NCBI GenBank assembly: GCA_965285935.1 | Contig: CBDIWN010000008.1 | Span: 310,001 to 374,000 of the forward strand | DNA length: 64,000 bases | Source: Ophelia neglecta | Lineage: Eukaryota | Reading direction: 5' to 3' | Shown: in pieces, positions 6,852-45,500 of the stretch | Layout of the letters: every line of letters starts with the position of its first letter | Position numbering within the stretch: the stretch's first letter is position 1 | Made by a program: the position numbers and the translations under genes | The notes under the pieces: generated by a model | What the model saw: only the letters and a program-made list of their open reading frames with translations | Told to the model about the DNA's origin: nothing | Databases searched by the model: none

Positions 6852-8144
6852 CAATAGGTCTGTATCCGTGAACTATCACCTCACACAGGGCAAGGTACTG
6901 GACTTGATACCCGCCTGCATTTCTGATAATGGTGACGTATCTGCCGCTTAGAGGCGAGTCACAATATATTGTGTCGCTTGCGTTTCCGGGTACGATTCCT
7001 GTATAATTCTTACAGAGACTTGTTGAATCATAGTATGCTTCGGAACCAACACCAAGGCGAAAATTACCGGTACGCCCTGTGAAAAGATATTCCTGGATAC
7101 AAATACATTGTCGCCAATGACACAATGTCCTCAGAGCGACTCTTACAGTAACCTTGATTCATGCAATGTACAGACGAATATAGAGGTGACAAATAAGTAA
7201 TTTAGTAATCAAAATATGGGTTTTTCATGAGGCCAAAGTTTCCATTATCACAAGTATGTGTAGACATATTTGTAAATAGCTCATCATTGAATATTACGCT
7301 GGTATTTCGTACAACCAATTAGAACTTTCGATCGAACAATTTTCTTAGCGATGTTTACACGAGTGGGTGACTTTTTATGTCATTTCTAAATAGAATCAAT
7401 TCAAATTAATTAATTGAAAATTTAATAACATAAATGCTGTTATTCCGGTTTATTAATAGGAAATACCTCTTTAGCTTTCCACCACATATTCACATCGTGC
7501 GTTAAGTGCGCTTTATAAGAACCGTAGCCAACAATTTAAAATCAAAAGAATCGGCCTCGCTATGGTTTCCCGCAACTGTTTTTGTATTTAATGTGTATCC
7601 CGTACGACTATTCATATGACTAGTTTGCATTTGCTTTCGATCTGTTTATTAGATGAGAACTCGAACCCAAATGACGTCTATTGTGTTTTAATCCTAAAAT
7701 ATATTAGATATTTAAGTAGCACTACTAGCACTGGTAGTCTATTGGTCAACAGTATACACATGAAATACAATTTGGAGTTTAATTTTTTCCCCATGTGAGC
7801 AGCGTGAGAGAGCAGAAAACAATCGCGTATCAGTACTGACGTGATTAATGCTACCATTATGCGTAGATGTTCCAGGTAGAGGTTTAACATTTGTGTCTAG
7901 ATCATCCAGTCGTTTTTTATTTACTTACGGTAAGATGGAGAATGCTCTCTGTTTAAGATGGTGACACTAACAACTGTGTAGATACCCTCTAGATCGACGA
8001 ACCACCAGGCTCTGAGCCCAGATCCAGCATCAGGAACTGCACAATAAATTGACCATGTAGATATTTTACCATCGACGGCCAGATCAGCGGCTGAATTACC
8101 ATATTGCCCACTTTGAAATGCCGGTCTTCCCTTCGCTATATTAC
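6852..8144 (-). CDS. Gene A F-type lectin (fucolectin/F5-8 type C-like) domain, two exons
   Basis: [11 protein letters not shown]...AADLAVDG...CAVP...AWWFVDL...VTILNR...GRYVTI...[10 protein letters not shown] matches the F-type lectin pattern N-x-A-x-G-K/R...Q-S...A-V-D-G...W-W-x-V-D-L...N-R...G-R-Y-V...L-C-E-V. Confidence 0.85.
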
Positions 8145-10039
8145 CTGTTTATACAAAATACTGATAAAACAGACTGTTCATGAATCCTTTTCTATAACGC
8201 TGTCATGAATCACAATATTACATATGTAGTATAAACTTTATCTTTACTCTAGCACACTCATGATAATAGTAACCCTTTTATGTCTTAATGCATCATATTA
8301 AGGTAATGGTAAAAACTTGTATGTATTATTGTGGCTATTGATTAGTCGCGGTAGGGCTATACTTAGAGGCAATGCGGAGGCCTAGACCTTGGGTATTTCT
8401 GAGTGACATAAACCAGAAAATAATCGGCAAGGCAAGGGTTATATCTGAGGGTAAATTTTACGGTTAGGGAAAAGGTTAGAGACAGGCTTAATAGGTCAAG
8501 CGCCCTGTTTTAATCTGGGAATTTACCTCCGCAAGGCTCCGCGCCTCCGCTTTTAATCAAAAGCCATTATTGTTTCATATAAAGTCTGCAACAGTTCATT
8601 ACATGAATGAGAGGACAAATGCATCACTTGAATTAAGAACAACAAAAGCAAAGGAAGTAACTTGACGGCTGAGACAAACAATAACTAAGGATGTTTTACA
8701 AGTACATATTTCTTAGATGTCATTCTTATGGTCATTCCGCCATTATTACACGAAGGACCTCAGAAGAACTTGCAACCGCTAAAATTCTTGGACCTCTGAT
8801 TCAAACAGACATATTTGAGAATGAGCGAATAGGACAAATAGGAGTATAGTTTAGTATATAAAACTTTACATTAAACCCGATAAAAACGATCATCATAATT
8901 ATTTTTGAAACAAAACAAGGCCTTAAAAAGCATCATATTGAACTCGATGCCTATTATAAAAACTTTTCTATTGTAGGGCATAAGTATGTATTCGCATTGC
9001 AGGCCAGTGTGACCGGGGAGGTGGAGGCATTATTTGATAGGCTAGGATTAAGAAAAAGTGCAGGGTGCATAAAAACATTGTTTGGGGCATGTAAATCCTA
9101 CATAAATAAAATCCTGAGCCTTAGCTAGACACAGCGATAGTGTGCTTCTGGAGTCTGCTTCTTCAACAAATGTTGTGCAAAATGACGTAATGGTTACATA
9201 AATATTCTTTAGTACTCAGTATAAATTTTTTTTTAAATACTCTATGCTGACAGTTTTAAATGCTTCCAAATGAATTTTAACAGAAAGTTTTACCAAGGTT
9301 ACACCCAGGCCCTTCTCTCCGTATGATGGCAGGATCATCCCATTCACATTCGCCTCCATCGATACAATCTCCTGTCATCTGATCACAACCCTTGGTACAG
9401 TGACAGGGAAATACACAGTCAGCAGTATTCCCAAACCTACACAGACCTGAGGGGAAAAATCAAGTGGAACATTTATTTGTTGGAATGTTAGACGAAACCA
9501 TGGAACTAACTGGTATTCCCGAACATGCTTGTTCAGGCAGCTCGATTTCTCTTATCGGCAATAGTTCGATCGCAAATGTCCGGAAAAAGAGCAGTACTAA
9601 TTTACAACGAGGATAGTGCTACGCCAAACCCTTCAAGCGTTATCTGCAAATCATAAACATTTTGTCTAGAAGTATACATCAACGAGTAAATCAAATTCAC
9701 ATCAGTGATATATTTTGACACGACAGTGTTATAGCGTTTCCAATGCCATATGGGTGGAACGAGAGTCCCTTTGTTCGCTGAAAGTAACCGAAAGCACCAT
9801 CTTCTTGCAATTCCGTGTAAAGTCGGGTATTCTATTTTTATTAACACCTTTACACTGTTAGTTATTAGTGTAGCTATTCTACCAAGGGGCCTAAAATTTC
9901 ATGAATCTTTTCAAATAAGCCACTTAAAATCATATAAAAAAACTATGATGCAATCGGTACAATTAATTCCACAACCTTGCGCTATTTCCCGGCCTCAGAT
10001 ATATTCTTCTTGTCGGTCTTACCTACCTTCCTCCGTCTG

Positions 10040-11870: not shown

Positions 11871-13329
11871 CTTCACATTTTGCACCAAAATGGTCATTCA
11901 TGATGATGAATATCCTAAATTTCTGACGGAGACATTTCATAGATCCCGACAGCGTTATTGGATTTTAAAAAATACAAACGTTTCTTTTTTGGACGTGACA
12001 CTAATACAATCCTTTCCTGAATTCTCCCCCCCCCCACTGTCACCCCTAACCCTCGCGCCGTTTTCAATTAGTGGGAAGCATCCGCTCCTAGTTACGAATC
12101 AGATCCACAACACACTGGTTAACATACGACATTAATATTAATGTACGACTTTAAATTCCAAGAGTGGTGATAGGAAAATTTAATGTCTTATTCATTGGAA
12201 CGGACACCTCCATTTTCAATATGTTGTCTATATAGTGTCACGATTTCCGTTGTGACCTGTGAACATGTATATTGACACCAAGTCCACAACTAATTGTAAA
12301 AGCATTCGTGACCCAAAAAATATTTCCATAATAATCACTGCTTAACTTTACGGGTTAACAATAAGGTAAAACAACTACGAATACTTAATAATACCACTGC
12401 CAACAACCCGGCGATCGAGAAATACCAATAAGTTCAAAACAAGAACATATCTACTAACCTGTCTGAGCGGTAACTCTTGTAAGAAAAACAGTGAAACTGA
12501 CCAGCAAACAAATGTAAATGATAGGAGACATTATCGAATTGCACGTTCACACACCTGCGTGAGTGTGTTTATTGTGAACACTATGACAGATAGAAGTGAC
12601 TTACAGGTATGCCTACATTAAATACGAATATTAATAATGATATTTACTTCCTGGTTTCCGAGGGGTCGCCTGAAAGTAAATACACCAGCCCACATCCCGT
12701 TAAACAAACATACTTTATGGCTGAAGAATTACATGTTTACAGTCATGCTATGTATTTTCAATACATAATAAATAATGTTGCATGCTCCTAAAATTGTAGT
12801 ACAATATATATTGAAGTGGAAGTCCCGAGGGTTGTATTTCGAACGCTTTATTACAATATTAAATCAATCGGATATTATTTACTGATGACAGTGACGATTC
12901 CATATTCATTAGTTGAATATAAGGAGATAATCTGTAAGCAATGAAAATAAACATCATGTAAAATACAAATAAGGGGACTAAAAAAAAGATATACACTGGG
13001 GCATGAACTGGATTATAGCTTCTTACCCAATGAAGGACGGGATTATAACGATGATTAAGTCTACAGACATATATGAAACAATGAACCTCCGGAGCAGGGA
13101 CACACACTGCTAGGCGAAGTAAGCACCATTGCCACATGTTTTATAAGTACTGGTATTTTAATATGGCCGTTACCTACATTTATATCGACTATAAATACAC
13201 AGACAAAAAAATAAAGCTAGTATGTTTGTCGATAAATTATTACTTAAATGCAAATTATAATATGAATGGAGATATGATTACGGTCGATAAAGTCTATAGG
13301 CACATAGAGTCATAGGCGGTCTATACATA

Positions 13330-13514
13330 CAGTGGCGATTCCAGGATTTCAGGAGGGGGGGGGGGGTGCTGACAAGGCAAATGTCTGGATTGTCCCCGTT
13401 ACCAACCCTCCGAAAGCACCTTGCTTGGGTCCAGAAATAAGCCCTGGTAAAAGCCCACTTTTGGGCCCCTTGGTTGGGCCCCCTGCCCCCCCCCCCCCCC
13501 CTTAATCCGCGACT
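13330..13514. mobile_element. MITE-like element with poly-G/poly-C arms; duplicate at 16578-16762
   Basis: Starts cagtggcgattccagg plus a G-run and ends with a C-run plus ttaatccgcgact (imperfect terminal inverted repeat). Non-coding, ~185 bp. Confidence 0.45.
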
Positions 13515-13569
13515 TTTGCTACTGTGCAAGAATGTATTCCCGGGGCAAACGCAGTGTAAACGCAGCTAG

Positions 13570-15677
13570 AATTGGATGGGGGATGGGGCCTTATCCTAAT
13601 TGGACGGGGGTGGGGCCTTATTCTAATTGGATAGCGGGTGGGGCCTTATCCTAATTGGATGTGGGGTTGGGCCTTATCCTAATTAGATGGGAGATGGGGC
13701 CTTATCCTAATTTGATGGGGGGTGGGTCCTTATCCTAATTGGATGGGGGATGGGGCCTTATCCTAATTGGATGTGGGTTTGGGCCTTATCCTAATTGGAT
13801 GGGGGATGGGTCCTTATCCTAATTGGATGGGGGTGGGGCCTTATTCTTATTGGATAGGGGGTGGGGCCTTATTCTAATTGGATGTGGGGTTGGGCCTTAT
13901 CCTTATTGGATGTGGGGTTGGGCCTTATCCTAATTAGATGGGGGATGGGGCCTTATCCTAATTGGATGAGGGATTGGTCCTTATCCTAATTGGATGGGGG
14001 ATGGGGCCTTAGCCTAATTGGATGGGGGATGGGGCCTTATCTTTATTGGATAGGGATGGGGGATGGGTCCTTATCCTAATTGGATGGGGCTTGGGTCCTT
14101 ATCCTAATTGGATGTGGGGTGGACCCTTATCCTAATTGGATGTGGGTGGGGCCTTATCCTAATTGGATGGGGGTGGGGCCTTATCCTAATTGGATGGGGG
14201 TGGGGTGGGGGGGGGGGGCTTATACTAATTGGATGGGGATGGATCCTTATCCTAATTGGATGGGGGATGGGGCCTTATTCTAATTGGATGGGGTTTGGGG
14301 CCTTATCCCAATTGGATAGGGATGGGGCCTTATCCTAATTGGATGGAGATGGGGCCTTATCCTAATTAGATGTGGGGTTGGGCCTTATCCTAATTGGATG
14401 GGGGATGGGGCCTTATCCTTATTGGATCGGGGATGGGGCCTTGTCCTCATTGGATGGGGATGGGTCCTTATTCTCATTTGATGGGGATGGTGCCTTATCC
14501 TAATTAGATGTGGGGTTGGGCCTTATCCTAATTGGATGGGGGATGGGGCCTTATCCTAATTGGATGGGGATGGGGCCTTATCCTAATTGGATGGGGGATG
14601 GGGCCTTATCCTAATTGGATGGGGGGTGGGTCCTTATCCTAATTGGATGTGGGGTGGACCCTTATCCTAATTGGATGGGGGTGGGGCCTTATCCTAATTG
14701 GATGGGGGTGGGGTGGGGGGGGGCTTATACTAATTGGATGGGGATGGATCCTTATCCTAATTGGATGGGGGATGGGGCCTTATTCTAATTGGATGGGGTT
14801 TGGGGCCTTATCCCAATTGGATAGGGATGGGGCCTTATCCTAATTGGATGGAGATGGGGCCTTATCCTAATTAGATGTGGGGTTGGGCCTTATCCTAATT
14901 GGATGGGGGATGGGGCCTTATCCTTATTGGATGGGGGATGGGGCCTTGTCCTCATTGGATGGGGATGGGTCCTTATTCTCATTTGATGGGGATGGTGCCT
15001 TATCCTAATTAGATGTGGGGTTGGGCCTTATCCTAATTGGATGGGGGATGGGGCCTTATCCTAATTGGATGGGGATGGGGCCTTATCCTAATTGGATGGG
15101 GGATGGGGCCTTATCCTAATTGGATGAGGGGTTTGGCCTTATCCTAATTGGATGGGGGATGGGTCCTTATCCTAATTGGATGGGGGGTGGGTCCTTATCC
15201 TAATAAGATGGGGGATGGGTCCTTATCCTAATTGGATGTGGGGTTGGGCCTTATCCTAATTGGATGGGGGATGGGTCCTTATCCTAATTGGATGGGGGGT
15301 GGGTCCTTATCCTAATAAGATGGGGGATGGGTCCTTATCCTAATTGGATGTGGGGTTGGGCCTTATCCTAATTGGATGGGGATGGGGCCTTATCCTAACT
15401 GGATGGGGATGGGGCCTTATCCTAATTTGAAGGGGGATGGGGCCTTATCCTAATTGGATGAGGGGTTTGGCCTTATCCTAATTGGATGGGGGATGGGTCC
15501 TTATCCTAATTGGATGGGGGGTGGGTCCTTATCCTAATAAGATGGGGGATGGGTCCTTATCCTAATTGGATGTGGGGTTGGGCCTTATCCTAATTGGATG
15601 GGGATGGGGCCTTATCCTAACTGGATGGGGATGGGGCCTTATCCTAATTTGAAGGGGGATGGGGCCTTATCCTAATT
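13570..15677 (+). repeat. G-rich 27-28-bp satellite/minisatellite array 1 (~75 units; consensus CCTTATCCTAATTGGATGGGGGATGGGG)
   Basis: Directly visible tandem units with diagnostic variants. Confidence 0.98.
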
Positions 15678-16817
15678 ACGTATCGACATTCCGAAGCTCT
15701 ACGCCAATATATTAGTGACTCAAAATGAACCGAACATTTCCTAAATACTAAATAGGGTGCTGTTATTACATGCGGGGCGGTTTAGTTTTACTCCAAACCC
15801 CTGGAACCGGCCTTTTTTTATCGACCGTGTGTTGTCCTGTTTAAAGTCAGTTTGCCTGTTCAACTGTTTAATAAGATTTTATTAATTGGCATAGGTATTA
15901 TATCTGCAGGTGACCATAATTGCACAGACCCATCCAGGGCATCGTTTACATTGTGCAGATTTGCCAAGCAAAGACTATTGCAACTTTATAATGCGAGAAA
16001 CAGAAGAAAAGAAATATCATAAAACTATTCAAACCTTATAGTTTTATTGCATTCCATTGGCAGGTTCATAATATAAACGTATGTGGATTGGTCAGCCATT
16101 TTTATGATGAAAATATATAATTTTTGCACCCAACCATTTTGCCACCCAACCAGTTGTGACCCAACGAATTTGGCGAAGATATTATATCTACAGGTGACCA
16201 CTATGGAACAGATCTATTCAAGGCATCATTTTTCAGACTTGTCAGCCAGCAGACCATTGCTGGTGACATTTTATAATGGTTGGAACAGATGTACAAGATT
16301 AAGTTTATTTCATATACATGTATAGTAGACTAAATTGGGACCAAACCATTTTGGCACTGTATATTATGTATATAAGTGACCATTTGGACATGCCCATTCA
16401 TAGCCTTTATATACAAATTTTGTAAACATCACAGGCAGCCGGGCATTGGACGTTTTAAGTTTAACTAGGTGAAACAGAGAAAAATTATTACTTAAATGCA
16501 AATTATAATATGAATGGAGATATGATTGCGGTCGATAAAGTCTATAGGCACATAGAGTCATAGGCGGTCTATACATACAGTGGCGATTCCAGGATTTCAG
16601 GAGGGGGGGGGGGGGGTGCTGACAAGGCAAATGTCTGGATTGTCCCCGTTACCAACCCTCCGAAAGCACCTTGCTTGGGTCCAGAAATAAGCCCTGGTAA
16701 AAGCCCACTTTTGGGCCCCTTGGTTGGGCCCCCTGCCCCACCCCCCCCCTTAATCCGCGACTTTTGCTACTGTGCAAGAATGTATTCCCGGGGCAAACGC
16801 AGTGTAAACGCAGCTAG

Positions 16818-18999
16818 AATTGGATGGGGGATGGGGCCTTATCCTAATTGGACGGGGCTGGGGCCTTATTCTAATTGGATAGCGGGTGGGGCCTTATCCT
16901 AATTGGATGTGGGGTTGGGCCTTATCCTAATTAGATGGGAGATGGGGCCTTATCCTAATTTGATGGGGGGTGGGTCCTTATCCTAATTGGATGGGGGATG
17001 GGGCCTTATCCTAATTGGATGTGGGTTTGGGCCTTATCCTAATTGGATGGGGGATGGGTCCTTATCCTAATTGGATGGGGGTGGGGCCTTATTCTTATTG
17101 GATAGGGGGTGGGGCCTTATTCTAATTGGATGTGGGGTTGGGCCTTATCCTAATTGGATGTGGGGTTGGGCCTTATCCTAATTAGATGGGGGATGGGGCC
17201 TTATCCTAATTGGATGAGGGATGGGTCCTTATCCTAATTGGATGGGGGATTGGGCCTTAGCCTAATTGGATGGGGGATGGGGCCTTATCTTTATTGGATA
17301 GGGATGGGGCCTTATTCTAATTGGATGTGGGATGGAGCCTTATCCTAATTGGATGGGGATGGGGCCTTATCCTAATTGGATGGGGGATGGGTCCTTATCC
17401 TAATTGGATGGGGCTTGGGTCCTTATCCTAATTGGATGTGGGGTGGACCCTTATCCTAATTGGATGTGGGTGGGGCCTTATCCTAATTGGATGGGGGTGG
17501 GGCCTTATCCTAATTGGATGGGGGTGGGGTGGGGGGGGGGGCTTATACTAATTGGATGGGGATGGATCCTTATCCTAATTGGATGGGGGATGGGGCCTTA
17601 TTCTAATTGGATGGGGTTTGGGGCCTTATCCCAATTGGATAGGGATGGGGCCTTATCCTAATTGGATGGAGATGGGGCCTTATCCTAATTAGATGTGGGG
17701 TTGGGCCTTATCCTAATTGGATGGGGGATGGGGCCTTATCCTTATTGGATCGGGGATGGGGCCTTGTCCTCATTGGATGGGGATGGGTCCTTATTCTCAT
17801 TTGATGGGGATGGTGCCTTATCCTAATTAGATGTGGGGTTGGGCCTTATCCTAATTGGATGGGGGATGGGGCCTTATCCTAATTGGATGGGGATGGGGCC
17901 TTATCCTAATTGGATGGGGGATGGGGCCTTATCCTAATTGGATGTGGGGTTGGGCCTTATCCTAATTGGATGTGGGGTGGACCCTTATCCTAATTGGATG
18001 GGGGATGGGGCCTTATTCTAATTGGATGGGGTTTGGGGCCTTATCCCAATTGGATAGGGATGGGGCCTTATCCTAATTGGATGGAGATGGGGCCTTATCC
18101 TAATTGGATGGGGGATGGGGCCTTATCCTAATTGGATGGGGATGGGGCCTTATCCTAATTGGATGGGGGATGGGGCCTTATCCTAATTGGATGGGGATGG
18201 GGCCTTATCCTAATTGGATGGGGGTTGGGCTTTATCCTAATTGGATGGGGGGTGGGTCCTTATCCTAATTGGATGTGGGGTGGACCCTTATCCTAATTGG
18301 ATGTGGGTGGGGCCTTATCCTAATTGGATGGGGGTGGGGCCTTATCCTAATTGGATGGGGGTGGGGTGGGGGGGGGGGCTTATACTAATTGGATGGGGAT
18401 GGATCCTTATCCTAATTGGATGGGGGATGGGGCCTTATTCTAATTGGATGGGGTTTGGGGCCTTATCCCAATTGGATAGGGATGGGGCCTTATCCTAATT
18501 GGATGGAGATGGGGCCTTATCCTAATTAGATGTGGGGTTGGGCCTTATCCTAATTGGATTGGGGATGGGGCCTTATCCTTATTGGATGGGGGATGGGGCC
18601 TTGTCCTCATTGGATGGGGATGGGTCCTTATTCTCATTTGATGGGGATGGTGCCTTATCCTAATTAGATGTGGGGTTGGGCCTTATCCTAATTGGATGGG
18701 GGATGGGGCCTTATCCTAATTGGATGGGGATGGGGCCTTATCCTAATTGGATGGGGGATGGGGCCTTATCCTAATTGGATGAGGGGTTTGGCCTTATCCT
18801 ATTTGGATGGGGGATGGGTCCTTATCCTAATTGGATGGGGGGTGGGTCCTTATCCTAATAAGATGGGGGATGGGTCCTTATCCTAATTGGATGTGGGGTT
18901 GGGCCTTATCCTAATTGGATGGGGATGGGGCCTTATCCTAACTGGATGGGGGATGGGGCCTTATCCTAATTTGAAGGGGGATGGGGCCTTATCCTAATT
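16818..18999 (+). repeat. G-rich 27-28-bp satellite array 2 (~78 units)
   Basis: Same consensus and same terminal variants as array 1; internal unit order differs. Confidence 0.98.
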
Positions 19000-20682
19000 A
19001 CGTATCGACATTCCGAAGCTCTACGCCAATATATTAGTGACTCAAAATGAACCGAACATTTCCTAAATACTAAATAGGGTGCTGTTATTACATGCGGGGC
19101 GGTTTAGTTTTACTCCAAACCCCTGGAACCGGCCTTTTTTTATCGACCGTGTGTTGTCCTGTTTAAAGTCAGTTTGCCTGTTCAACTGTTTAATAAGATT
19201 TTATTAATTGGCATAGGTATTATATCTGCAGGTGACCATAATTGCACAGACCCATCCAGGGCATCGTTTACATTGTGCAGATTTGCCAAGCAAAGACTAT
19301 TGCAACTTTATAATGCGAGAAACAGAAGAAAAGAAATATCATAAAATTATTCAAACCTTATAGTTTTATTGCATTCCATTGGCAGGTTCATAATATAAAC
19401 GTATGTGGATTGGTCAGCCATTTTTATGATGAAAATATATAATTTTTGCACCCAACCATTTTGCCACCCAACCAGTTGTGACCCAACGAATTTGGCGAAG
19501 ATATTATATCTACAGGTGACCACTATGGAACAGATCTATTCAAGGCATCATTTTTCAGACTTGTCAGCCAGCAGACCATTGCTGGTGACATCTTATAATG
19601 GTTGGAACAGATGTACAAGATTAAGTTTATTTCATATACATGTATAGTAGACTAAATTGGGACCAAACCATTTTGGCACTGTATATTATGTATATAAGTG
19701 ACCATTTGGACATGCCCATTCATAGCCTTTATATACAAATTTTGTAAACATCACAGGCAGCCGGGCATTGGACGTTTTAAGTTTAACTAGGTGAAACAGA
19801 TGTACGACAAGAAGAATTAATAGACATTGAACTCATCCCAACCAAATAGGCACCATCGTGTTGTTTTGCATTAGCTAAAATATCAATTACAATGGTTGTA
19901 GTATTGTAAATCTTATAGTTTTCTGCATGGAAGATATACATTATGCGAGCAAGGCATCACATAAGTGCCACTCAGGGATTTTCCATTACAAATCTGGGGT
20001 AGAGCGTGGTATGGAAATATTCAGAATTCAGGGATAGGGGGATTAACATTTTACATTGGTATTATTGGTATAATCAACCTCTTATTGTAAATTACATGTA
20101 GAGACTATTCTCCATGTTGTTCTACTCTGCCTTATTTCCTGCTTCTTTGTGATGGCACTTCTATGTATAATCGTACTGACAGTGATGCTCTAAATGATCT
20201 TTTACAGTGACAGTGAAAAAAGGACCCTTTGGTAGGGAAACTGATTAAATTAGAGCAACATGAGGAATACTAAACTACAGAAATCATTTATTCTGGCATA
20301 GACTATAGAATTCACCGGGGTGATGTTTGATAACAAATCTATTATTAATTTGGAGAAGCACAAAAATTAATATAAAAAAAATTATTTGGGAGAAATTTTC
20401 CAAAATAACTAGACCTTGGTGATTTTCAAGCTAACTTAGGAGTAGGAAATTAGAATATCTTATGTACAGTTGCGTTCTGACGGTTCGCCCTGGCTCTTTA
20501 AACAATTGGGTAAATACTTGGTGGTTTGGCCAGTTATTTACCCGAAACCCACAATTTGACTGGTAACGTGATGTCTCATCCTATAAATATGAGATTGAAT
20601 TTTTTTACTACGATTTGGTTTGAAGGTCGGCTTCTATGGCCGATTTGTTTCATAACCTCTTTTTATAGCGTAATACTATTCG

Positions 20683-31412: not shown

Positions 31413-33548
31413 CTACTTAAAGTTTCCATACTGCTCGTTCCTTGTAATATACTCCATTGCAATACAATGTAAGAAACGATATTGATCCTGTTAAGAAATG
31501 GATACATTCACTTTAACTGTAACTTTATCTTTGAATACATGCATAAGATAACTGATTAATAAATAGCCCACTATCTTTGCACATTAACATTGATGAAAAT
31601 AGCCCGACATTTTGAAATTTTAGATTAGTTTGTCAATTGCAGAAAAGCATTGTTTGTCACAATTCCGAAAACTCTTAACGTCAATGCACATATTAGTTAT
31701 AGTACTTACCAAATTGTTGACAAATTGTTGTCTGTGGAGGGAAACAACTCTGACAGCAAGAAAGACGTCGACCTCGCGGTCTTCTTTCATCTTCTCTAGC
31801 ATATAATGTGCTGCGCATATCATTCCACTGTGGCTGGCACCGTCTCTGTAATATCCGAGTAAGTAATGGCATGTTGATTAAGCACGCGAGATGCTTTAAG
31901 GAGATCAATACTTACCTCAATCTCCTTAAGCCATATGGAAAAACAAGGCGATGGCAGGTGAGATGAAAGTTTAGAGGGACATATGAAAGCGCTATCAGCT
32001 GATTAATTAAATAGCCCCCCCCCCCACCAGCAACCCCTAATTAAGCGTCAGTGTCTCACTAATAACGAACAAGCATAGTGGTATATATGCTAAAAAGTGT
32101 GGATCATCCTTCAATAATTCATATTTTGTATGACACTTAGATTTTACAAATTACAGCTGCCTATTTATAAATGGGTGTTTGGCAACAAACCCCTCATTGG
32201 CGCTTTTTTTTAATCCTAAAGAGAAACACTTGTCTAGAGACTATCATAAGGATGATCCTAGTTTATTCATGTATTATTTGTGTTGTTCTGTGTTTATACG
32301 AAAACAGTTGACGTGTTTATAACTTACTTGCATTGGATAACAATTTTTCCAGCTTCAGATTGTCGTTGCCACTTCTGAAGGCGTTCTAACAGATTTAAAG
32401 TGTCATCCATGTTTGGCAGATTCTGTTTATCTGGCCGTTGCTTGAACAAAATATGGCGGACGCTCAATGCCTTGTTCTGGAATTAAGAATTTAACCAATA
32501 GTATTAAGATATCGTTGTTGTATTTGAGAATATGCTTTTCTATACTTCTAATAGTTGCCATATCAACATAAATTAAATAAAATCCACTAACACTTGAGGA
32601 AAAAGACACGGTGAACTTTCTTTCTTCTATGGCATCTTTCTCGTCTTCGTCTTTTGAATCGATGCGCACTTCAAGATCACCAAACTTCCTAACGTCACCT
32701 TGTTGAAAATCCCAGTAATTGGGACAATCCTGATGATAGAAATTGATGATAAAACAAGTTTGTATATTTTGACGGATTTAAATGTGATTACCTAACTTCT
32801 GGCATTTCGTATTGCACTGTTTGTTTTATTGGAGCACGGCCGCCTACCTCGGAGTTAGGGGACGTGGTGTCCACAGTTATCACAGTGTGGCAGTTTTGTT
32901 CATACACCAAACGCCAGAGGTCAACAACAGTATCAGGGAGTGGCAGCTGTGTTGCAATGAATGTCTTCTCCGCAAGAAAACTCTAATAAATCGTGGAGTA
33001 AACGAAATGCATTCCATCAGTATGTGGCTTTAAGTTCAAGAAAATTCGAAAAATACAAAAGAAAGAAAAAAATGTTATCAATTGAGCATCATCCAATAAA
33101 TCACTATTAAAAGAACATGATTAACGGAAAATATGTCTAGAAATATACCATGCGTTAATAATCATTCAGCAAAGTATAAGGGAGATTGATGATATGGTGA
33201 AAAAGCTGAATGTAAGTTGTATTCATTTAAACCAATACACACGTTGACCACAACGGCATTGATATAGTCATTGGTCCCCGGACATCTTGTAGATAGATAC
33301 AACCTGTGTTTATTGTCTATTGAAGAAAACAAAAGAAAACAGTTGTTTGAGTTAACCAATCTGATTGTGCATTGGTTCCATATACAGACATATAAGATTA
33401 GTTATATTATCATAACCCATGCAGTGTCTATTATCTTAAACTATGTACCTGGCACTATATCAGCATCTCGATTCTTCCGCCTGTTTTCCTTACTCAGAGC
33501 ACTAAGTTTGTCATCTGACTCCTTGTGTTGTTTCATTTTGGAAAGAAT
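31413..33548 (-). CDS. Gene B PTP D2 domain (predicted catalytically impaired) and C-terminal YGNFK
   Basis: P-loop QCKDGASHSG lacks the CX5R arginine. The WPD loop is RPD and KNRY is KNRD. Confidence 0.85.
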
Positions 33549-36500
33549 CTGAAATGTAAGTCATGCCATAATTATCATCGCCTCACAGTGATACAAAAGG
33601 GCTACTTTTCAGATAGGCGGAGTATATGGAAGCAAAAACCAAACAAACTGTTCACAGTGATCGAAAATGGCTAATGCCAAACTGACTTCATTATCGATTC
33701 CCTCTGTTAGCAAGGTAACGTAAATGGTGAGCATGCCGTTTGTTGCTGTCATCATAGAAAGTGCCATATTGTTATAATTATAGTGTTTGCCATCCATTAT
33801 AAACCACATGCGATTTTAACACTTTTGTTTAACATATCACACATTATCATATTGGTTAATGAGTGTTTACATGAAAAAGATGCATGTCTTTATATAATTA
33901 ATACAAGATTACATCATTGGAATACATAGTTTTTCACAACAAATATTAATAAACTAAAATAGTATCTATAAATTATTAATTGCTGAAATGGTGCAACAAA
34001 ACCACTATGTATAAAATGCTTACTTTGAATTGTTCTTCGATGGGTATTTCGTTGGAATATTCGTTTCCGCCGACCAGTTGCGTGAACCTCTCAGGATACA
34101 CGATACATGGAATGGCCGTCTGTCCTTGCTGGTATGCATCTAACAGTGCCTCGTAGATAAATATATATTGTGGCTGAAAGCAGAAGAAATATAACTTAAT
34201 ATATCTATTGTGTAGGAGTCAGTAATAATTAGATATGTAGACCAAATTGATAATTATGAAAATTGAGTATCCTAATACAAGAGCCATCGTATGGAGATTT
34301 AAAATATTACTATTTGCCTTTCCTCCTAAATATATATCAAAAGTAATGTTGAAATGTCACGAATGCACATAATTAAGTAGGCGTTTAGGATAAGGCGTTG
34401 ATAATCAAAGTTTAGTCGGCATATGGGTTTACAAACTCCACATCGATTTTCTATAATCTTTGACCTTAGCTGAACAAGATAATCTTTTTGGTAAAAACAG
34501 TGTTCATGTAAAAGCTTAATATAGCCTTAATGGAGTATTATCTCAGGAAAAATTCTTACCAATGTCTGAACCATTTCCATACGTTCATTTCTGAGCTGAG
34601 TTACCAGTTTGAAGACATCTACTTTTCCTTCTCTTTTCATTTGGTCCAGGAGATAGTCCAGCGCAATCAATGTCCCTGTGCGGCCTATTCCAGCACTGGG
34701 AGGGATAAAGGAAATATGCTCATTGTGACATTATTGTGCCTTGATAAATAAACTAGCCTAAGAACATTGTAAGCTTCAAATATGTTATTTTACCTGCAAT
34801 GCACAATAATTGGCCCTGTTCCCTCTCCGTCAAATGATCTCAGCTTTCGTCTGAATTGCAAAAGAGGGAATGCATGTTCTGGGGCCTCCTTGTCTGGCCA
34901 GGAGAGGAACTGCAGGTGCTTTACTGTCCTCTGTTCATTCTACAATATGCAAAAATGGGGTTTTCTTACTTTAAAGTCTAATTGTGTTGATCGTCCTCAA
35001 ACGCTGACATGCTCTCGTTAAGTGGCGCCGCAAAACGAAAGCTTTAAGGAATCGGAACATTTTAAGTTTTTGTTTTGAATTTTTCCATCCAAGAAAAAAT
35101 AATTGCACCATATCTGATTTTGCATTACTTTATTACATAACTTGGCATAGACCAGGTTATATCAAGTAATTGATGTTATAACAATTAAAAATCTGTGATC
35201 ATGTTCTATAAATACAGAATTCGACCAGTATTTAGTGTGTTTATTGTCTCTCAACTGTCGGTCAGCTATGAATTATATTTTACATGCCAGTTACCAGATT
35301 ACATGTGTTGCACAACCAGAAAGCAGTTATTCTCAGTACAGGCATTTTGTTTCCAGATATTTAACACAGTAAATCGAAAACAGCTCCTCCCGCAAGAGTT
35401 GAATAGTACGTCAAATGTGTAACAAATATTCTGCGTGTCGATGAAGTATTTGTGACACAAGCCTGCCCTAGTTATCAGGTATATTTAGGAAATAAATATC
35501 GATTTGCTATACACTATGTTGATGAAATTTTAGATGAAGAATTTGACAGTTGCTTGACGTTGCGAAAGCTGTCATAACCAAGTGACTTTAATGTGCTGGC
35601 AACCTGCTAGAATAGGCAGTTAAACAACAACAACAAATCACATCGTTATGGTATGAACTATGTGACATGTGGTAATCTAGATGTATAAAAGTAGAAACGA
35701 AAATAAGAAAAATGCGAGTGGAAAGCCGGCAGACAAAGCCAAGTCACTAGTCGAGAACAGTCCATTAAATCGTTCCGAAGTCATCAGGAACCAGTAGCCA
35801 AGGCGAGGCAGCAACAATTAAAACTAAGAAACGCACAAACACACCTCCGGACATATATAATAAGCAAAATATGCTTTAAACGACCTTCACTCATTTCTGT
35901 CTGATACTGGTTAAAAGTATTATATGTACCAACATGCAGTTCACAATATGATATAACTAAGAGGAAATGTTGTTCACGTGTTTCTTAACGTGTTTCGTTA
36001 CCTTCTGCGATTTCTCGTAGTTATTAATCTTCTAAGCAATACGGGCCATTCCACAATGTATAGAAGAATGAATAATTTCCTTTCACTTAGGGCCAAATTA
36101 ATCATATGAAATTTAAAATAACTGTAAAGAAAATCATACCCCTTTTTGTATGGTGATGAGTGTCAGAGTGTAGTCGGCATATGAATCACAGGCCGTGGTA
36201 GTCACTGTTATATCATCATAGGTTACGACCTCACCGACTGCCTCGGGCCAATACTGGGCACACTTTGTCTGTTTTAAATAAAACGAATGCCAATTGCAAA
36301 TGCTTAAATAGACACGCTCTAATGCCATTTAATACGTCACAAAAAAAAAAACAAAAAAACAATACAATTCAACAATACATTTTATTTTGTTCACACTGAC
36401 AAACCTTGGTGAGTTCTTTAATTCGTGTTGCCATAACAATACGATTTGACTCTAACTGCCAGACCATCGACCACAACGCGTACACTGTGTGCGGCTTCGG

Positions 36501-39500
36501 TCCTGAAAAGAAACATTTAGAAAAAGTTAATAATCGTTTGCTAGATGATAGATTTCTTTCTCTTAACCTTACTTAGTTGCTGTTTAGATTTTTTAAAGAC
36601 ATCATCATTATAAGTACCTATAGTATTGTTTCTGTTTCAATATTCGAATAATTTCTGATTTAATTTTAAGCCGACCTATAACTTCGTGAAACCGTAATCG
36701 TTTTTGTGACATATAATCTATGTCCGAATACCTATATGCGTTTGTGCGAGTTTTGATCACTCACCTTGTGTGGCCACGTAATGGTTTTTCTTATTAGGAT
36801 AACCCTAAAAAAAGATACGTCACTTCGACTGTGCTTTAGATTATAAATGACTTTACGGTTTGAGATATATCAAAAACCGGTAACATGTGGGTATATATAC
36901 CGATCTTCAGTAAAACCATTTCAATATAGTAATCACATTTACCGTTATGAAGCTGGCATTGATGTAGTCAGAGTTATCAATAGTAGTTTCCAGAACCACT
37001 CGAGAAAAGTCGTCTATAAAAATGTAACTCATCATGTAACATATGAATAAAATACTGTAAATTAATATCTTTTAGCAAACTGGAAACTTTCGCAAATTTA
37101 TATATAATCGCGGAAATATCAACTAGCAAAAATTTCCTGTGTGCTATTCCCTTACGCAACCCTTCTTTTAAGCAGTAATCAGGCTCTATCGTCGCTCAGC
37201 CAGGTCGGTAATGCAGGGTGAAATATGACTCGGGGAATTTTCTGGTTCCCTTAGACACCTTGTTTCTCAGTATACTTTGGCTGTCATTGAGTACATTTTA
37301 CCATTTTACGTTCTCAGACGTGTGTTTTTAAATATGAAGGTTATAATCAAAGAAAACATACAGGCTCTGATATTCTTAAATCGATCCCTAGCTATGTTTT
37401 GTGTCTGCTTGGCCACGTCACATGGGCTCAGTTCTCCGTAAGGGACGTCCTTCAACAACAGATAAAGTAATTAATGGAAAAAGCGTGAAAAGAAAAATTA
37501 AAACAGGACAAACAACTGGGACGAGTCTGTAAAATAAATGAGAGAACACAAATCATATATCAAAGCTTCGGTGCAAAATTAGGTAGCTGGAAAGAACCAA
37601 TGTGTTTTTAATTCAGACCATCCAACTTTAAGATATCACAATCGGCGATCGTCTTAAAATGAAGGGAAGGAATATTGGTACATTATTTTATTTTAGTTTC
37701 AAATACGGCGCAGTAATTAATAAAGATCTATTTTCGTGGCTAATCTTGTTTTCTTTACAGCCCCCAACATATAAAGCATAAATGACCATTTATTGAAACC
37801 CGCAGTGTATATACAATGAACGTTTTCGGTATACCGTGTATGCATGAACCATTTTTACTTCATTACGCATGTGTGACCCAATTAGTCAATGCCACAACAG
37901 TGGTAGGTCTAAAAATTGCAGCGGGATAAGACACCAAGGTTGCTTACACGGTGGATCAACCGATGTCATGAACTGTTTGAAGTTTAATTACAACATAAAG
38001 AAAGTAATAGATACATAAATTCCAAAGGATAAACATAAAGGACGCCTACTTTACTCAATGTCTTAATTGGAATTAAAGGAAGCATTACTCGTAACTTATT
38101 GTACCATCATGATCAATGCGACCGGCTTTATTATAGATATTTAATGTAGTTGTTATAGAGTTTTGAAATTACGAAAATGTGAACTAATGTAGATAGCTTT
38201 GTCAGTTAACTCATTTTATTAGAAAATCTTCATAAAACACAACTTAAATCGGCATGCATGACATAACCAAAATGACAAATATGACATTTTAAGTCGACCT
38301 ACGTAAGAGCCAGATTTAGGGTGACGTGCTAGGCGGGCACAATTTAACTTGAAAATGTTCTTTTGTAACGCGGTTATAAAATATCAGGTTGGCGATACGA
38401 ATGTTTGACACTTCCCGGGTTTATGCACGCATGCCCTCACAAAGTACCCCAGCATGCAGCGCTGTCTTCCGCTTTACGCCAGATGCCACAAATATCTATT
38501 ATCGCTCGAGCATACGCGATAGTGGTAATCATGGACATTTTGGAGAATGTTATATATCTAATCTAAGGAACTAGTCCAGAAGGCTTTATTCAATACCACA
38601 CACTTTACTTAACAGTGTCATCAAATTAGTTGTGCTGCCAAAGGCCTTTTTGTATTCTAGAAATGCAGATACCTTCAATTCAAAAAAAGAAGAAAAAACT
38701 TTTCACTGGCTGGTTACTCACTTCAAATTCCTTTTTCAGACCATCCTTAGTGTATTTCCGTGCCCCAATATATACTTCAAGATCATCTTCTTTGACGCAA
38801 GTTCCTTCGTCAAGACGTTTTTTAGCCGGGAAGTCATAGTATATCGTATTAGGGTTCTCATCTACGTTACCTCCAAAGCATGGATTGTCTACTTCCTTCA
38901 CAACTTGCGTTTCAGCCAGGTCTGTAACAGGTCCTTTGGAATGGTAAAAAATAGACTGATTGTATATTGTCCATAGTAACTGACATGCTTTCTCAAAATG
39001 ACACTATACAGCGAAGCGAATATTTAAATAGGTTTGATTACATGTGAAAAACGGGAGTAGGTACCCGGCACACAAAACAATATCATTTATCAAGAAAAGT
39101 CCATCAATTTGGTCCGGTACAATCAGGAATCGAAAGACATAGGCCTGGAATTACTTACCGGAAGGCCTTCTAAATGACGAATAGCTTCTTCCATGTGGAG
39201 GTATTTCCTCCATTTTAGCATTAGCATCATCTTTCGCTTTCGTGCGTCGTTTCCTATTATGAATTTTCAAACACACCGCTCGTAAGGATTTTTATAACTC
39301 ATTAATAATAACGAAGCACTCTCAATGCTGATGCTTACTAAAAGCATAATGGGATATAATTCCTCTGAGAAACAACGTACGGGTTGATAATTTCTTAATT
39401 CACCAACCTGAGAAAAACGACAAGAATTACCACCAGGATGGCTATAGTCAGGAACGCTGCCACTGATCCGGTAACAGGACCGATCAGGCCTAACGAGGCA

Positions 39501-42500
39501 GGGGGTCCGACGCTAGGCTCTGGAAGATTGTACAATTGAAATGGACATTGGTTAAGCAGCTGCAATGATGTTGTTTGCGTCTGAAGCACAATAAATAGAT
39601 AGTATAGAGCATCGGCATATAAAGGCTATGTCAACTTTTTTTTTTACGGCCCACGAATTCACCGGCTACAAGTTAAAAAAAAGTTGCTGTAGTAAATACT
39701 ACTTGTGACCATAAGAAATATGAAATTATATGTGACAAGGCAATATTATCGACATTGTTGGTAAGGGTATTGTCGACATTTTTTCGATATTGGCAACAAT
39801 ATACTTTGATACTGAATTTAAATTCAAAACCTTGTTCCTGTGTGGCTAAAGTAGTAGCGAAGACAGTCATGTTTTTGAGACAGTCTTCTTTTATTCCAGT
39901 CAATTGCCGATAAATCTTTAATATGATTCGGTATGTAGAATTGACCGCCAGATTTGTCAATGTTTTGTCATATTTCATAGCAATATTATCTTCTTTGATT
40001 TCTATTGTGAGCGATTCAATGTCTGCCCCATTTGCCTCTGAAACGGTGATTTTGTAGCCAAATACGGCCGATGTATTTAATGGAATAGCTTTCACGTGTG
40101 TCCATTCAATGGTTACTCTGTCACTTTGAACATCGGTGATGCTGATTTTGTTCGCATCAGGATACTCAACATAGGCTGTTCATATAAAAAAAAGCAATAA
40201 GATCATTAATTTTTCATTGATACATAAACATAATTGTGATTACTTTCATAAGAGAAAAATTTATCAAAATTATGTCTCAGTGCAATAAAACTGATTTTAC
40301 TAACCTATAGATTGGTTACAATGATCTCCAGCATACCATGTATTGTACGGTTCAAGCTGACAACCGTAACTACATGCTCCACTGTACCGATGACAAGTCG
40401 TTGTGTCATCTACAGCCTCACAGTAAATACTACATGGTTTATCACATGTTATGCCATAATAACCACTCTGACAAACGCACGCCCCGCTATACCTGTCACA
40501 TCCGGGGTAACTATGCTCACCAAGACACTGATTATTACAGGTTTTATTGCAGTATTCTCCATAAGAACCGTCGTTACACCCATGATTACAAATCCCACTC
40601 CACTTGTTGCAAGAGACCAATTGGTTGAGTGGCGTACAGCCCGAGCTGCACCTTGTTTCACAAAATGCTCCCCACCTGGCCCCCAGACAACCCTTAGAGC
40701 ATGTTCCGTTGTTCCTCGCACAAACAGAGGTCCCATTAACACCTTGACAGTATTCACTGCAGGTTTCGTTACATGTGTTTAAGTAGTATCCATTTCGACA
40801 GCCATTATTACAATCTCCTGTTTCTCTGTGACAAACGTTAGAAGCAGAGACTACATAACAACCATTGCTACAATTGTACTGACACTGGTCTCCAAAGTAA
40901 GGGTCCTGACAGCCACTCGTGCAACGTCCATCAGTGACAGAACAAGACCGAGCATTAGACTTCTGATCAGTAAGGCAGTTCGCACTACATTGCTCGTTAC
41001 AATTGATGCCGAAATGGTCTATATCACATTCTGTAACGTAGATTAAAGTTAATAAGTGAAGGTTTGTTACGGCTCACCTTAAAACTGGATGTTACTGCTA
41101 GGGCATTGTGTAATATGTTACAGTGAATAGTGACACGATTCGTTAAATCTTAGACAGTTATGAGCCTACCTTGGCAGTCCGGGTACTTTGGGTAGTTCTC
41201 GGGGCATTTACTGCAGCCAATAGCGGGATCGCACGACTGACATCGGGTTGTATCACACACTAGAATGGATAGTTAGCAAAAATAAAATAGTGCTGTATTG
41301 GGCCTTATCCTTTAACACAACTTTCATAAATCCCAATTAATCGCTTTGACTCATAATTGTCTTCCTGTGCAAGCCTAAGATCGAAGTGATTACAGTGGAT
41401 TGGCGTCAAGTTCAGGAGTGAGTTTGCATTTGTTGAGCACCATCTATTATCTGATTATTGAAATTAGTCACGGCATTAGTTTCAACGGTGTCAAATGCGA
41501 GTGGGTCCATTTGAAAATGTTTAGCTTATGCAGCCACTATCTATTCCTAATAACCACTATCTCATTCCGGAACACACATTCAAAGATGAAAATAAGTGCC
41601 GGTTTTCACATACCAATAGGTTTGTATCCGTGAACTATCACCTCACACAGGCCAAGGTAATGCACTTCATCCCAGCCTGCATTTCTAATAATGGTAACGT
41701 ATCTGCCGCTGAGGGGTGAGTCACAATATATTGTGTCGTTTCCTGCTTTGGGAACGACTCCTGTATAATTCTTACAGAGACTTGTTAAATCACCGTCTGT
41801 CTTGGAACCAACTCCAAGGCGAAAATTACCGGTACGCTCTGTGAAAAGGTATACCTGGTTACAAATACATTATCTCCAATGACAAAATGTCATCAGAGCG
41901 ACACTTACAGTAACCTTGAATCGTGTATTGTACAGACGAATATGGGGGTGACTAATAACTAATTTAGAAATCAACAAATGGTGTTTTGCTTAAGGCCTAT
42001 GTGTACATTATCTAAACTTTGTGTTAACATGTTTTTAAGTAGCTCATCATGGAATATATCGCTGGTATTTTGTAAAACTAAATAGAGATTTCTATCCAGA
42101 CTATTTTGTTAGCGAGGTTTACACGAGTGGATAACGTATTTATAAAATACCTAAAAGAATCAATTCTAATAAAATAGTTGAAGATTTAATAACATAAATA
42201 GTGTGTTGCAGGAAATACCTCTTTACTTTTTCACCACGGATTCACCTTGTATGTTAAGTGTGCTTTACCAGTACCGTAGCTAACAATCAAGGAAACAAAA
42301 TATTCTGTTATGCGATGGTTGCCTCGCAACAGATTTTGTTTCAAATTTGTATCCTGTTCTCAAGGGAAATATTCACAGCCCTAGTTTGCATTTGCCTTCG
42401 ACACCTGTATTAAATGGGAACTCCAGCCCATTTGACATCAATTTCTTTTTATGCTAAAATATATCAGATTTGTAGGTAGCAATACTAATACTGGTGGTCT

Positions 42501-45500
42501 ATCAAAAGCATACACATGAAGTACAATTTGGAATTTATATTTTGCCCATGAGAAGATAATGGGAGGGACGAAAACAATTATTAGTAATGATGCGGTTAAT
42601 GCTACAATCAGGCGTGGATGTTTCAGTTAAATGTTTTACATTTGTCTCTACCAGTCGTTTTTGATTTTCTTACTGTAAGATGGAGAATGCCTTCTGTTTA
42701 AGATGGTGACACTGACAACTGTGTAGATATCCTCTAGATCGACGTACCACCAGGATATGTTCCCAGATCCAGCATCAGGATGTGCACAATTATCTATCAA
42801 TGTAGAGATTTTACCATCGACGGCCAGATCAGCGGCAGAGTTATAAAATTGTCCACTTTGATATGCTGGCCTTCCTTTCGCTATATTACCTGTTTATACA
42901 AAATACTGATAAAATGTCTGGTTTATTATGCTGTATTTAATCATAGAATAACCTATTTAGTAAACCACAAGGGCGAACAGAACATTTACGGGTATATGAA
43001 AATGCTCTTTACCAGCAAATGAATAAAACGTTCCTCATAATCATAAGATAATGCAAAACAAGAAATTTAAAAGCATCATATTGGATGCGATGCATATTAT
43101 ACAAGCATTTCTCTGGTAGGGCATAAATATCTATTTGCATTTCAATCCGGGTCTGACACTTATAGAGAAGGGAAGAGGTTGAGGCATTATTGGTTCGGTT
43201 AGAGATCGGAAAAAGAGCAGGATGCATGCAAACATTGTTTGACAGGTGTAGACCCGTCCTCTTCCTGCACTATAGGTTTTTACAGTTCTATATACTATAT
43301 TATAGTAATATCACAGTCCTATTCATTGCCATAACAAACATATTTCCTACTTATACAGAGCAAATAGAACACATGCTATCAATATGCTTACTCGAGGGCC
43401 ATATTCTTTCAAAAATAGCCCCCATGTTACTTGCTGAACTACACAAAATTACTTCAATTTTCTCCAATGGCAATGGCATCATGATCACTATACCGGAATA
43501 TTTTGGCCGTATGGGCAAAAATTCTGATTTCGAAACGTGAGATTTTAGGAAGTTTGTAGCCATCCATTCCCTCTCATCTTGGTTACATAATTCTACGAAT
43601 AAGTAGTCATCATTCGTCCGTGTAATTATTAGGTCTAATATATGACCTTTATCATGTTTTGGACTCGTAACGGGTCGTTAACGGTCAAATGTTTTGATCA
43701 AATGCGAGAACCTTGTAACATTACTATTATCTAACCTATTAAGGTGAATATTAAAAGCTCCTAATGAGTATTTGATTTCCCAAGGACGAAGATATCTATA
43801 AATGTTTCAAATGATTGATGTAAAATGAGTGGAAATCTGGACAAAGTCATCATTCGTCCTTGATAGTATAAGGTCTCATATGTGACCTTTATCATGTTTT
43901 GGACTCGTAACGTTTTCTTAACGGTCAAATGTTTTGAGCAAATGCTAGAACCTTGTAACATCACTATTATCTAAACTATTAAGATGAATATTAAAAGCTT
44001 CCAATGAGTATTTGATTTCTCTAGGACCAAGATATCTATAAATGTTTCAAATGTTTGGTGTAAAACAAGTGGAAATCTTGATACATTCTTTATTGATGGA
44101 GGTGGTCTATAGACTATAATGATGCTAATCCTATATGAAATGGGCTTTATACTTAAATAAAGACATTCAAATCACATAAATTTATGCTCCAACTGCTGAA
44201 TAACGTGAAAAAAAATAATTTAAGGCGATAAACTTTTAAGCAATCAAAAAACTGTAAACAGTTCAAATATAACAGTTCAACATAGATATAACATAAAAAA
44301 GGGAAATGTGACAAATTAAGGTATAAAAATTTGCCAGGCTTAGATTCAATAATCAAATTAATTGTATTTGATCGTTAACAGTTCTCATACTGAAGGAAAC
44401 AATCGGAGACATGACCACCGAGGACTACCGGCGATCATTCTAAATTATTCGGAAAATGGTTCCATACTTTGTATAGTTGAATGATAGGGGACAGTTCTCA
44501 TAGATTACTCCCAAATTAATTTTTGTTTTAGGATTGGGGCTCTCTTAGGTTTTGATTGAATAAATAGGTGCCGTAAGTGCATTAAAAAATTCACATGTCC
44601 CCATGGCAATATTATTTATTCTTTTCAACATTGTCAAGGGCGTTCTGATATTTCATATTATACTAATTATATATTGCATAAAAAAATTGATTATGATTTG
44701 ACTTTTCATGAATACTGTACGTCATAGTATTAAAATGAGAATTATGGAGTGTTAATACCTACACAAATAAGAACCTGAAGGTTAGCCAGTCACAGCGATA
44801 CTGTGCCTCAGGTGTCTGCTTATTTTCAAAAAGTTGCGGGATATGACGTAATGGTTAAATTAAAATTGATAAGTATACAGTATAACATTTTTAATATCTC
44901 TATTTTGACAGTCTTAAAAGTATTAGAATAAATATAAGGGGAAAGTTTTACCGAGTTTACACCCAGGCCCTTCTCTCCGTATGATAGCAGGGTCATCCCA
45001 TTCACATTCACCTGAATTGATACAATCTCCTGTCGTCTGATCACAACCATTGGTACAGTAACAGGGAAATACACAGCCAGCAGTATTCCCAAACCTACAC
45101 AGACCTGAGGGAAAAATTTCAAGGGGAACATTTAAATGGTAGGACTTGGTGTTAAACAAAACATGAAACAAATTGGTATTCCTGAACATTTTATTTGGGC
45201 AACACGGCTTTCTCTGACCAGCAAAAGTTTGCTCCCAAAAGTCGGGCCGAAAAAGCAAAACGTACATAAAACCAGGAGTGTGGGGGACCAAACACATTGA
45301 ACGTAATCTTCGAAACATAAACCTTCTTGTGTAGAAGAATACATCTAAGATTTATAAACATTCATATCAGTAATATATTTTGACGCGACAGCTAACGTTA
45401 TGTGCGTTTGACGAGCGTCCTTTTGTTAGCTGAAATATCCGAGAGCACCAACTTTCTTGTTATTCCGTGGAAAGTCAGTATTTCAATTTTTATCAAATAT

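Follow-up and report, generated by a model that had tools for sequence, protein, structure and literature searches.

In Biomphalaria, the EGF/galactose-binding receptor phosphatases of the SudRes1 locus form a cluster, are diverse in their extracellular part, and in some copies have lost EGF (PMC12297450), and LG5R carries fucolectin receptors of two sorts, one ending in a small cytosolic tail (1B) and the other bearing phosphatases (1C) (PMC13712769); here and below, statements on published systems refer to excerpts of the cited sources. Receptors of similar build lie under schistosome-resistance peaks in two snail species. Here, we describe a 64,000-nucleotide stretch of Ophelia neglecta DNA (assembly GCA_965285935.1, contig CBDIWN010000008.1, positions 310,001 to 374,000 of the forward strand; hereafter the window) that contains a minus-strand tandem array of receptor genes, designated A, B, and C. 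The array encodes lophotrochozoan single-pass receptors in which a signal peptide, an EGF-like domain, an F-type lectin domain, EGF repeats, an FN3 domain, and a transmembrane helix are followed either by phosphatases (B and C) or by a short tail with tyrosine motifs (A). A and B place two unrelated signaling halves on one ectodomain lineage, in which 423 of 515 aligned residues are identical (82%). The two ectodomains split at approximately 0.18 changes per silent site; since then, the barrel of the lectin has been conserved and its exposed loops have changed at the neutral rate or above, with an excess of multi-hit codons. We consider it likely, although unproven, that diversifying selection acted on part of these loops. 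Loop diversification in F-type lectins is already known from eel isoforms and oyster bindin, as is this receptor class; the new element is a tail that resembles the tyrosine-based activation motif of immunoreceptors (ITAM) and has an intrinsic phosphatase as its counterpart, both on a diversifying lectin ectodomain that they share.

In A as in B, a single intron interrupts the lectin domain. Its assignment to the F-type fold, made in a preliminary description of this stretch, is upheld by matches of B lectin exon 1 to striped bass FBP32 (3cqo, 1.5e-7) and eel agglutinin AAA (1k12, 8.9e-6). The best full-domain relative of the spliced lectin (P0025, 45% identical) was folded as a stand-in for the window lectin (mean pLDDT, 68.5), with strands and AAA numbering carried over, and the same two structures, 3cqo and 1k12, were the first matches of the model. 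Both structural disulfides (AAA 50-146 and 108-124) are kept, as Cys 34, 93, 110, and 136 in A and B, and the cation motif hhDG is present in both as AVDG. B retains His36, Arg65, and Arg73, equivalent to AAA His52, Arg79, and Arg86; in gene A the core His, residue 36, is replaced by Val. Measured against the canonical fucose motif His...Arg-x-Asp-x4-(Arg/Lys), as defined in a review (PMC5712786), B carries His where the motif has Asp and its loop is longer by one residue, and neither A nor B has the canonical-site Asp or the Cys-Cys pair. Because the motif is altered in both, A and B are, on sequence grounds, F-type-fold domains with a variant site and not canonical fucolectins. N-glycosylation sequons are shifted by the loop changes, lying at lectin residues 43, 95, and 105 in B and at 95 and 103 in A (sequon windows, B 42761-42753 and 41740-41732; A 6984-6976); the residue-43 sequon of B falls in a loop on the pocket side, where it could cover the sugar site or fill it with the receptor's own glycan.

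The preliminary description had counted about 31 differences in 146 lectin residues and about 15 in 115 FN3 residues between A and B, and had called the former clustered, radical, and largely absent from framework segments. In this comparison of two sequences, the exact counts are 31 of 146 and 15 of 114, and all six quoted lectin motif pairs are present. Adjacent differing residues are in excess in the lectin (14 pairs against 6.4 expected; p = 0.0006, 20,000 shuffles), and FN3 shows no clustering (1 against 1.8). Clustering is seen as well in the 5' part of the long EGF exon (9 versus 4.2 adjacent pairs, p = 0.008; A 6420-6026 versus B 41030-40636), with no positive-selection class. BLOSUM62 scores are negative for 16 of the 31 lectin changes versus 3 of 15 in FN3, and only 8 of 78 framework residues differ versus 23 of 68 in loops (p = 0.001). 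Differences are more frequent in lectin loops than at FN3 non-strand positions (8 of 63, p = 0.007; FN3 strands are placed roughly, from a low-confidence model of pLDDT 45) and marginally more frequent than at EGF positions other than cysteines (45 of 213, p = 0.05). For the domain as a whole, the contrast is significant neither with FN3 (Fisher p = 0.10) nor with the 369 other ectodomain codons, 61 of which differ (p = 0.25).

We placed these changes on loops aligned to the complementarity-determining region (CDR)-like loops of AAA. The review PMC5712786 assigns Glu26/His27 to CDR1, Phe45/Tyr46 to CDR2, and Arg79/Asp81 to CDR4; the limits of CDR3 and CDR5 and the top or bottom placement of loops were inferred from strand order. 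The loops aligned to CDR1 to CDR5 contain four of the clusters and two isolated changes (2/9, 4/9, 2/7, 2/10, and 4/9 residues, respectively), as anticipated for variation at the binding face. This mapping does not extend to one of the six clusters, EAYYDS/KTDGDL, which aligns to AAA 96-105 and, judging from topology, is probably on the face opposite the pocket. Outside the CDRs, differences number 5/9 in this opposite-face loop (residues 83-91), 3/5 in loop 100-104, and 1/10 in two short turns. Nor do all changes tune a peripheral loop; one removes the core His instead.

Silent divergence of the lectin (dS, 0.18) equals that of the other ectodomain and is near that of introns (0.17-0.24). In a fixed-partition codon model, the ratio of nonsynonymous to synonymous rates (dN/dS) is significantly below 1 in the lectin framework (0.29), EGF (0.52), and FN3 (0.40). 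It is 1.27 in CDR loops and 1.62 in other loops, or 1.05 and 1.41 with double-base changes, and 1.17-1.39 in merged lectin loops. A pairwise site-mixture test, which requires no loop limits, assigns approximately 30% of lectin sites to a class with dN/dS of 3.6-3.7 (likelihood ratio test [LRT], 10.9, p = 0.004; 7.4 allowing double-base changes, a value reached in 2 of 111 null simulations). No class with high dN/dS was found by this test in EGF or FN3 (LRT at most 2.5), and introns are without a surplus of adjacent mismatches (39 versus 45). The proposal of diversifying selection is thus favored by the mixture test, in the lectin only, and not by the fixed partitions.

Homology between A and B stops 140-170 bases past the FN3 exon, and the transmembrane exon of A is unrelated to that of B. 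Compared with the rest of the window by blastn and tblastx, this exon and the two short tail exons of A matched nothing. Joined at the sole AG/GT sites that preserve the frame, the spliced tail has 71 residues and four tyrosine motifs (YANL-x7-YEQL, NPxY, and YENI), without phosphatase domains. It fits the ITAM consensus Yxx[I/L]x6-9Yxx[L/I], taken from a Hydractinia preprint, in a way that depends on the inferred splice junction; the pattern occurs in 0.35% of 100,000 shuffles of the tail. The long EGF exon of A lacks 191 bases relative to B, and a stop follows at codon 389 if it is spliced in. Because all ectodomain exons are phase 1-1, skipping the exon keeps the frame and yields 478 residues. 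Judged from its sequence, this copy of A would have been made null by a recent frameshift, unless splicing bypasses the broken exon, which is symmetric. The remaining exons, the splice sites, and the tail are all open, and the broken exon has lost 1 of 28 cysteines versus 5.9 expected had the whole A branch been neutral (p = 0.011, a rough value). The deletion looks recent because of this cysteine count and the conserved lectin framework, and it therefore could not explain the lectin clustering. A single-base assembly error behind the frameshift was rejected: the loss amounts to 191 bases, and at 6023/6025 loose ends of contigs continue into the lacking segment. Among the contigs listed at the deletion, none was seen bridging the deleted junction.

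Gene B is an uninterrupted frame of 1,303 residues spread over 25 exons, all internal junctions of which have AG/GT, and runs in order through a signal peptide, an EGF-like domain, the F-type lectin, EGF repeats, FN3, a transmembrane helix, and two phosphatase domains. Pfam Y_phosphatase was found on all three gene B exons tested, and no ITAM is present in the gene. The first phosphatase domain (D1) carries WPD and a further ten-residue motif. In the second (D2; 31845-31710), QCKDGASHSG stands where the active-site motif would be, which fits a D2 that we presume to be inactive. Gene C has the transmembrane and phosphatase exons in common with B; 26 of 549 residues differ, and dN/dS in the phosphatase exons is 0.19. 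The EGF exon of B has four named relatives, all bivalve proteins, the best being Mizuhopecten yessoensis P0151 (35%, E = 2e-34), and its top three Atlas clusters are mostly molluscan.

Three contig sets from one sample contain about 0.4 of gene A words. Over 4700-8300 (3.6 kb, introns covered), 760-847 contigs per set align at 80%, which fits many related copies without giving a copy number. Among the 40 listed of 923 differences between A and these contigs, 12 of 14 in ectodomain exons read the B letter, including all six in the lectin, and at the His codon 447/458, 662/662, and 250/250 depth units read His in the three sets. Fixed differences from the contigs also occur in introns, and the sample may simply lack this A allele. 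The transmembrane exon of A is covered, with 3-12 contigs per site in its vicinity and 1.6-2.9 times the flanking depth, which hints that short-tailed genes form a subfamily. Protein searches with B lectin exon 2 and with the FN3 alignment found no close paralogs, both weak negatives, and a profile search with lectin exon 1 returned distant lectins only. A metagenome scan gave one 36% match (L001), which was not used.

Several observations weigh against diversifying selection on the binding loops. The whole lectin domain has a dN/dS of 0.75, and the earlier expectation of a ratio above 1 in CDR loops was not supported, no fixed partition being significantly above 1 (p = 0.17-0.88). Non-CDR loops vary as much as CDR loops (9/24 versus 14/44, p = 0.79). 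Base mismatch in lectin loops (43/204, 21%) shows no excess over introns (239/1,271, 19%; p = 0.44), and silent changes are somewhat higher in loops (9/45 versus 7/70), not significantly so (p = 0.17). The mixture null is without silent-rate variation or gene conversion, loop limits were drawn after the differences had been seen, and the lectin, compared in two sequences, was chosen because it looked variable. In addition, Val36, Leu43, Tyr87, and Ala104 look private to the A lineage rather than part of a family-wide diversity, because the contigs read the B letter at the lectin positions listed. Low constraint by itself, with the surface loops of the barrel evolving neutrally around a conserved framework and no adaptive change, would accommodate the CDR and merged-loop ratios (1.05-1.27 and 1.17-1.39, none significantly above 1), the intron-like mismatch, and the equally variable opposite-face loop (5/9). 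FN3 loops of the same genes are, however, far less variable (8/63), and a mixture of neutral and conserved sites, not rejected in EGF or FN3, is rejected in the lectin. We regard this account as unlikely, if far from negligible.

Short gene-conversion tracts from more distant paralogs could also have put older, loop-sized patches into A or B, where selection could still have kept them. In favor of this, the family is large (760-847 contigs per set over 3.6 kb), A is itself a mosaic in which B homology ends 140-170 bases after the FN3 exon, and silent changes are twice as frequent in loops, although not significantly. Yet the changed codons in the six clusters are nearly all amino acid changing, and tracts of 6-20 bases coinciding with loops would still require selection, which makes conversion improbable as an alternative. 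The suggestion that A has long been a pseudogene and that its differences are decay draws on the 191-nt frameshifting deletion, the loss of one EGF cysteine and the lectin His, and the absence or rarity of A letters in the aligned contigs among the positions listed. Random decay, by contrast, would neither cluster nor spare the framework (dN/dS, 0.29), the loss of 1 of 28 cysteines falls short of the 5.9 expected (p = 0.011), and the remaining exons, splice sites, and tail are open. We therefore judge decay to be very improbable; long-standing decay was rejected on the framework and cysteine counts, and relaxed selection on a pseudogenic A, raised at the outset as a possible cause, is discounted on the same grounds.

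If diversifying selection acted on some of the loops, it would have driven a minority of their sites toward altered recognition of ligands, with glycans of parasites or microbes the likeliest targets and the loops changing to follow varying glycan ligands; the remaining loop changes would reflect low constraint. B may bind a fucose- or galactose-type sugar via His-Arg-Arg and convert binding to dephosphorylation. Because Val replaces His, A is predicted to bind something else, or nothing, at the sugar pocket, and A-type genes would convert binding to tyrosine phosphorylation, recruiting SH2 proteins such as Syk. The ectodomain may have been swapped or homogenized between tail classes, since the tails long predate the 18% divergence of the ectodomains; ectodomain exchange between signaling classes is also seen in vertebrate paired receptors. 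An immune or allorecognition role is suggested by analogy with relatives. The locus names residues likely to set specificity.

Together, A and B possibly constitute a paired activating/inhibitory glycan receptor set, in which the phosphatase arm of B would be inhibitory. As in paired receptors, the genes are linked and their ectodomains highly similar; the two members of such a pair are both intact, whereas this copy of A is frameshifted in the long EGF exon. A fuller proposal, which we offer tentatively and consider somewhat doubtful, is that one lectin ectodomain lineage is exchanged between an ITAM activating tail and a tail with its own tandem phosphatases. Self glycans would be recognized by the phosphatase arm, which would dampen signaling, whereas diversification of the loops in the ITAM arm, to the point of giving up the sugar-binding His, would serve to catch parasites that mimic or exploit self glycans. 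If true, such pairs would be a new interpretation of the fucolectin receptors, both short-tailed and phosphatase-bearing, that lie at the schistosome-resistance loci of snails. A short-tailed member with an ITAM-like motif that shares 82% of its ectodomain with a phosphatase-bearing member offers a route to testing the activating/inhibitory balance in glycan recognition.

The features of the array are listed in Table 1. In a self-comparison of the window, block A 5310-9857 duplicates B 39734-45510 (72-86% identity) and a second block, B 27990-39759, duplicates C 52367-63989 (84-89% identity).

Table 1. Features of the receptor array (positions within the window)
Feature	Position	Strand	Remarks
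Gene A signal-peptide exon	12459..12531	-	Assigned to A by position; phase-1 GT donor
Gene A first EGF-like exon	9294..9446	-	Frame open
Gene A lectin exon 1	7929..8144	-	Clusters 8103-8098, 8055-8035 (Val replacing His here), 8016-8008
Gene A lectin exon 2	6852..7076	-	Clusters 7041-7024, 6987-6976, 6912-6898
Gene A short Cys-rich exon	6564..6653	-	
Gene A long EGF exon	5886..6420	-	535 nt; 191-nt frameshifting deletion near 6024; both flanking introns phase 1
Gene A FN3 exon	5414..5758	-	
Gene A transmembrane exon	4829..4949	-	Not alignable to B or C counterpart at DNA level
Gene A tail exon 1	4467..4585	-	YEKP; first Tyr of ITAM-like motif
Gene A tail exon 2	3927..4021	-	Completes YANL-x7-YEQL; then NPMY, YENI, stop
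Gene B signal-peptide exon	49437..49509	-	Assigned by position
Gene B first EGF-like exon	44952..45104	-	
Gene B lectin exon 1	42674..42889	-	Clusters 42848-42843, 42800-42780 (His retained here), 42761-42753
Gene B lectin exon 2	41614..41838	-	Clusters 41803-41786, 41749-41738, 41674-41660
Gene B Cys-rich exon	41170..41259	-	
Gene B long EGF exon	40305..41030	-	726 nt, intact
Gene B FN3 exon	39831..40175	-	
Gene B transmembrane exon	39408..39519	-	
Gene B two juxtamembrane exons	39159..39253 and 38722..38933	-	
Gene B tandem protein tyrosine phosphatase domains	31413..37449	-	15 exons
Gene C transmembrane and tandem phosphatase exons	55850..63745	-	Open frames; paralog of B; ectodomain beyond window

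Two further copies of the signal-peptide exon with its upstream flank lie at 24838-24766 (-) and 305-233 (-). The former has no receptor exons downstream before the next signal exon and either stands alone as an orphan or serves A as an alternative first exon; the latter is the start of the next gene, off the window. Just upstream of the gene A signal exon, 13231-16478 and 16479-19800 form a 3.3-kb tandem duplication (93.5% identical), each unit of which contains 75-78 copies of a 28-bp satellite. A 240-bp tandem repeat in two copies (43605-44078) occupies the B intron preceding the lectin exon and is absent from A. Two frames resemble retroelement fragments by eye, a retrotransposon endonuclease (43351-43677; no Pfam match) and a LINE reverse transcriptase (20934-21218, +; no Pfam match at E = 0.01).

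Compared with described systems, A and B resemble the Biomphalaria MEGF/GBD receptors in being clustered, recently duplicated, single-pass proteins with a signal peptide, EGF repeats, and a galactose-binding/fucolectin domain. Gene B has every element by which an MEGF/GBD receptor protein tyrosine phosphatase is defined, including one transmembrane helix and tandem phosphatase domains. Unlike in the snail genes, for which the excerpts list none, FN3 precedes the membrane here, and the likeness is one of architecture; no snail sequence was among the protein search matches. The tail of A is ITAM-like, whereas the snail short tails are described in the excerpts without signatures, and the word "ITAM" occurs 0 times in the main texts of PMC12297450 and PMC13712769. 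A literature search returned no account in which these lectin receptors have ITAM tails or follow a paired-receptor logic, with most subscription papers and the supplements, where snail gene tables may hold tail motifs, outside its scope. The bivalve P0151 likewise combines EGF repeats with tandem phosphatases but, unlike A and B, is without an F5/8 (lectin) or FN3 Pfam match.

Among lectins, AAA and FBP32 share sequence and fold homology with the domain described here; B has counterparts of His52, Arg79, and Arg86, and the two cysteine pairs are kept, as is the DG motif. The window lectins differ from them in having no Cys82-Cys83 pair, His for Asp after the first Arg, and a shorter CDR1, and AAA and FBP32 are secreted proteins, not receptors. 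In Pacific oyster bindin, the lectin domains show positive selection at eight pocket sites, and one isoform has Val, Gln, and Lys replacing His-Arg-Arg (PMC5712786). Pocket-clustered change, loss from the basic triad, and an intron in mid-lectin are thus common to both systems; bindin is a sperm acrosomal protein of one to five lectin repeats, unlike the type I receptors with one lectin domain and signaling tails found here.

ITAM and inhibitory-motif (ITIM) families are known from Hydractinia (Alr) and Botryllus (FcoR), with oyster CgIgR also in the class, and an ITAM-Syk route is reported in oyster hemocytes (PMC6994640). The array resembles these families and paired receptors in its linked genes, similar variable ectodomains, and differing signaling tails. 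Vertebrate paired receptors include KIR, Ly49, and Siglec-5/14. In the ITAM/ITIM families, the ectodomains are of Ig type or C-type lectin and the inhibitory ITIM recruits a phosphatase, whereas here the ectodomain bears an F-type lectin and the second arm has phosphatase domains of its own.

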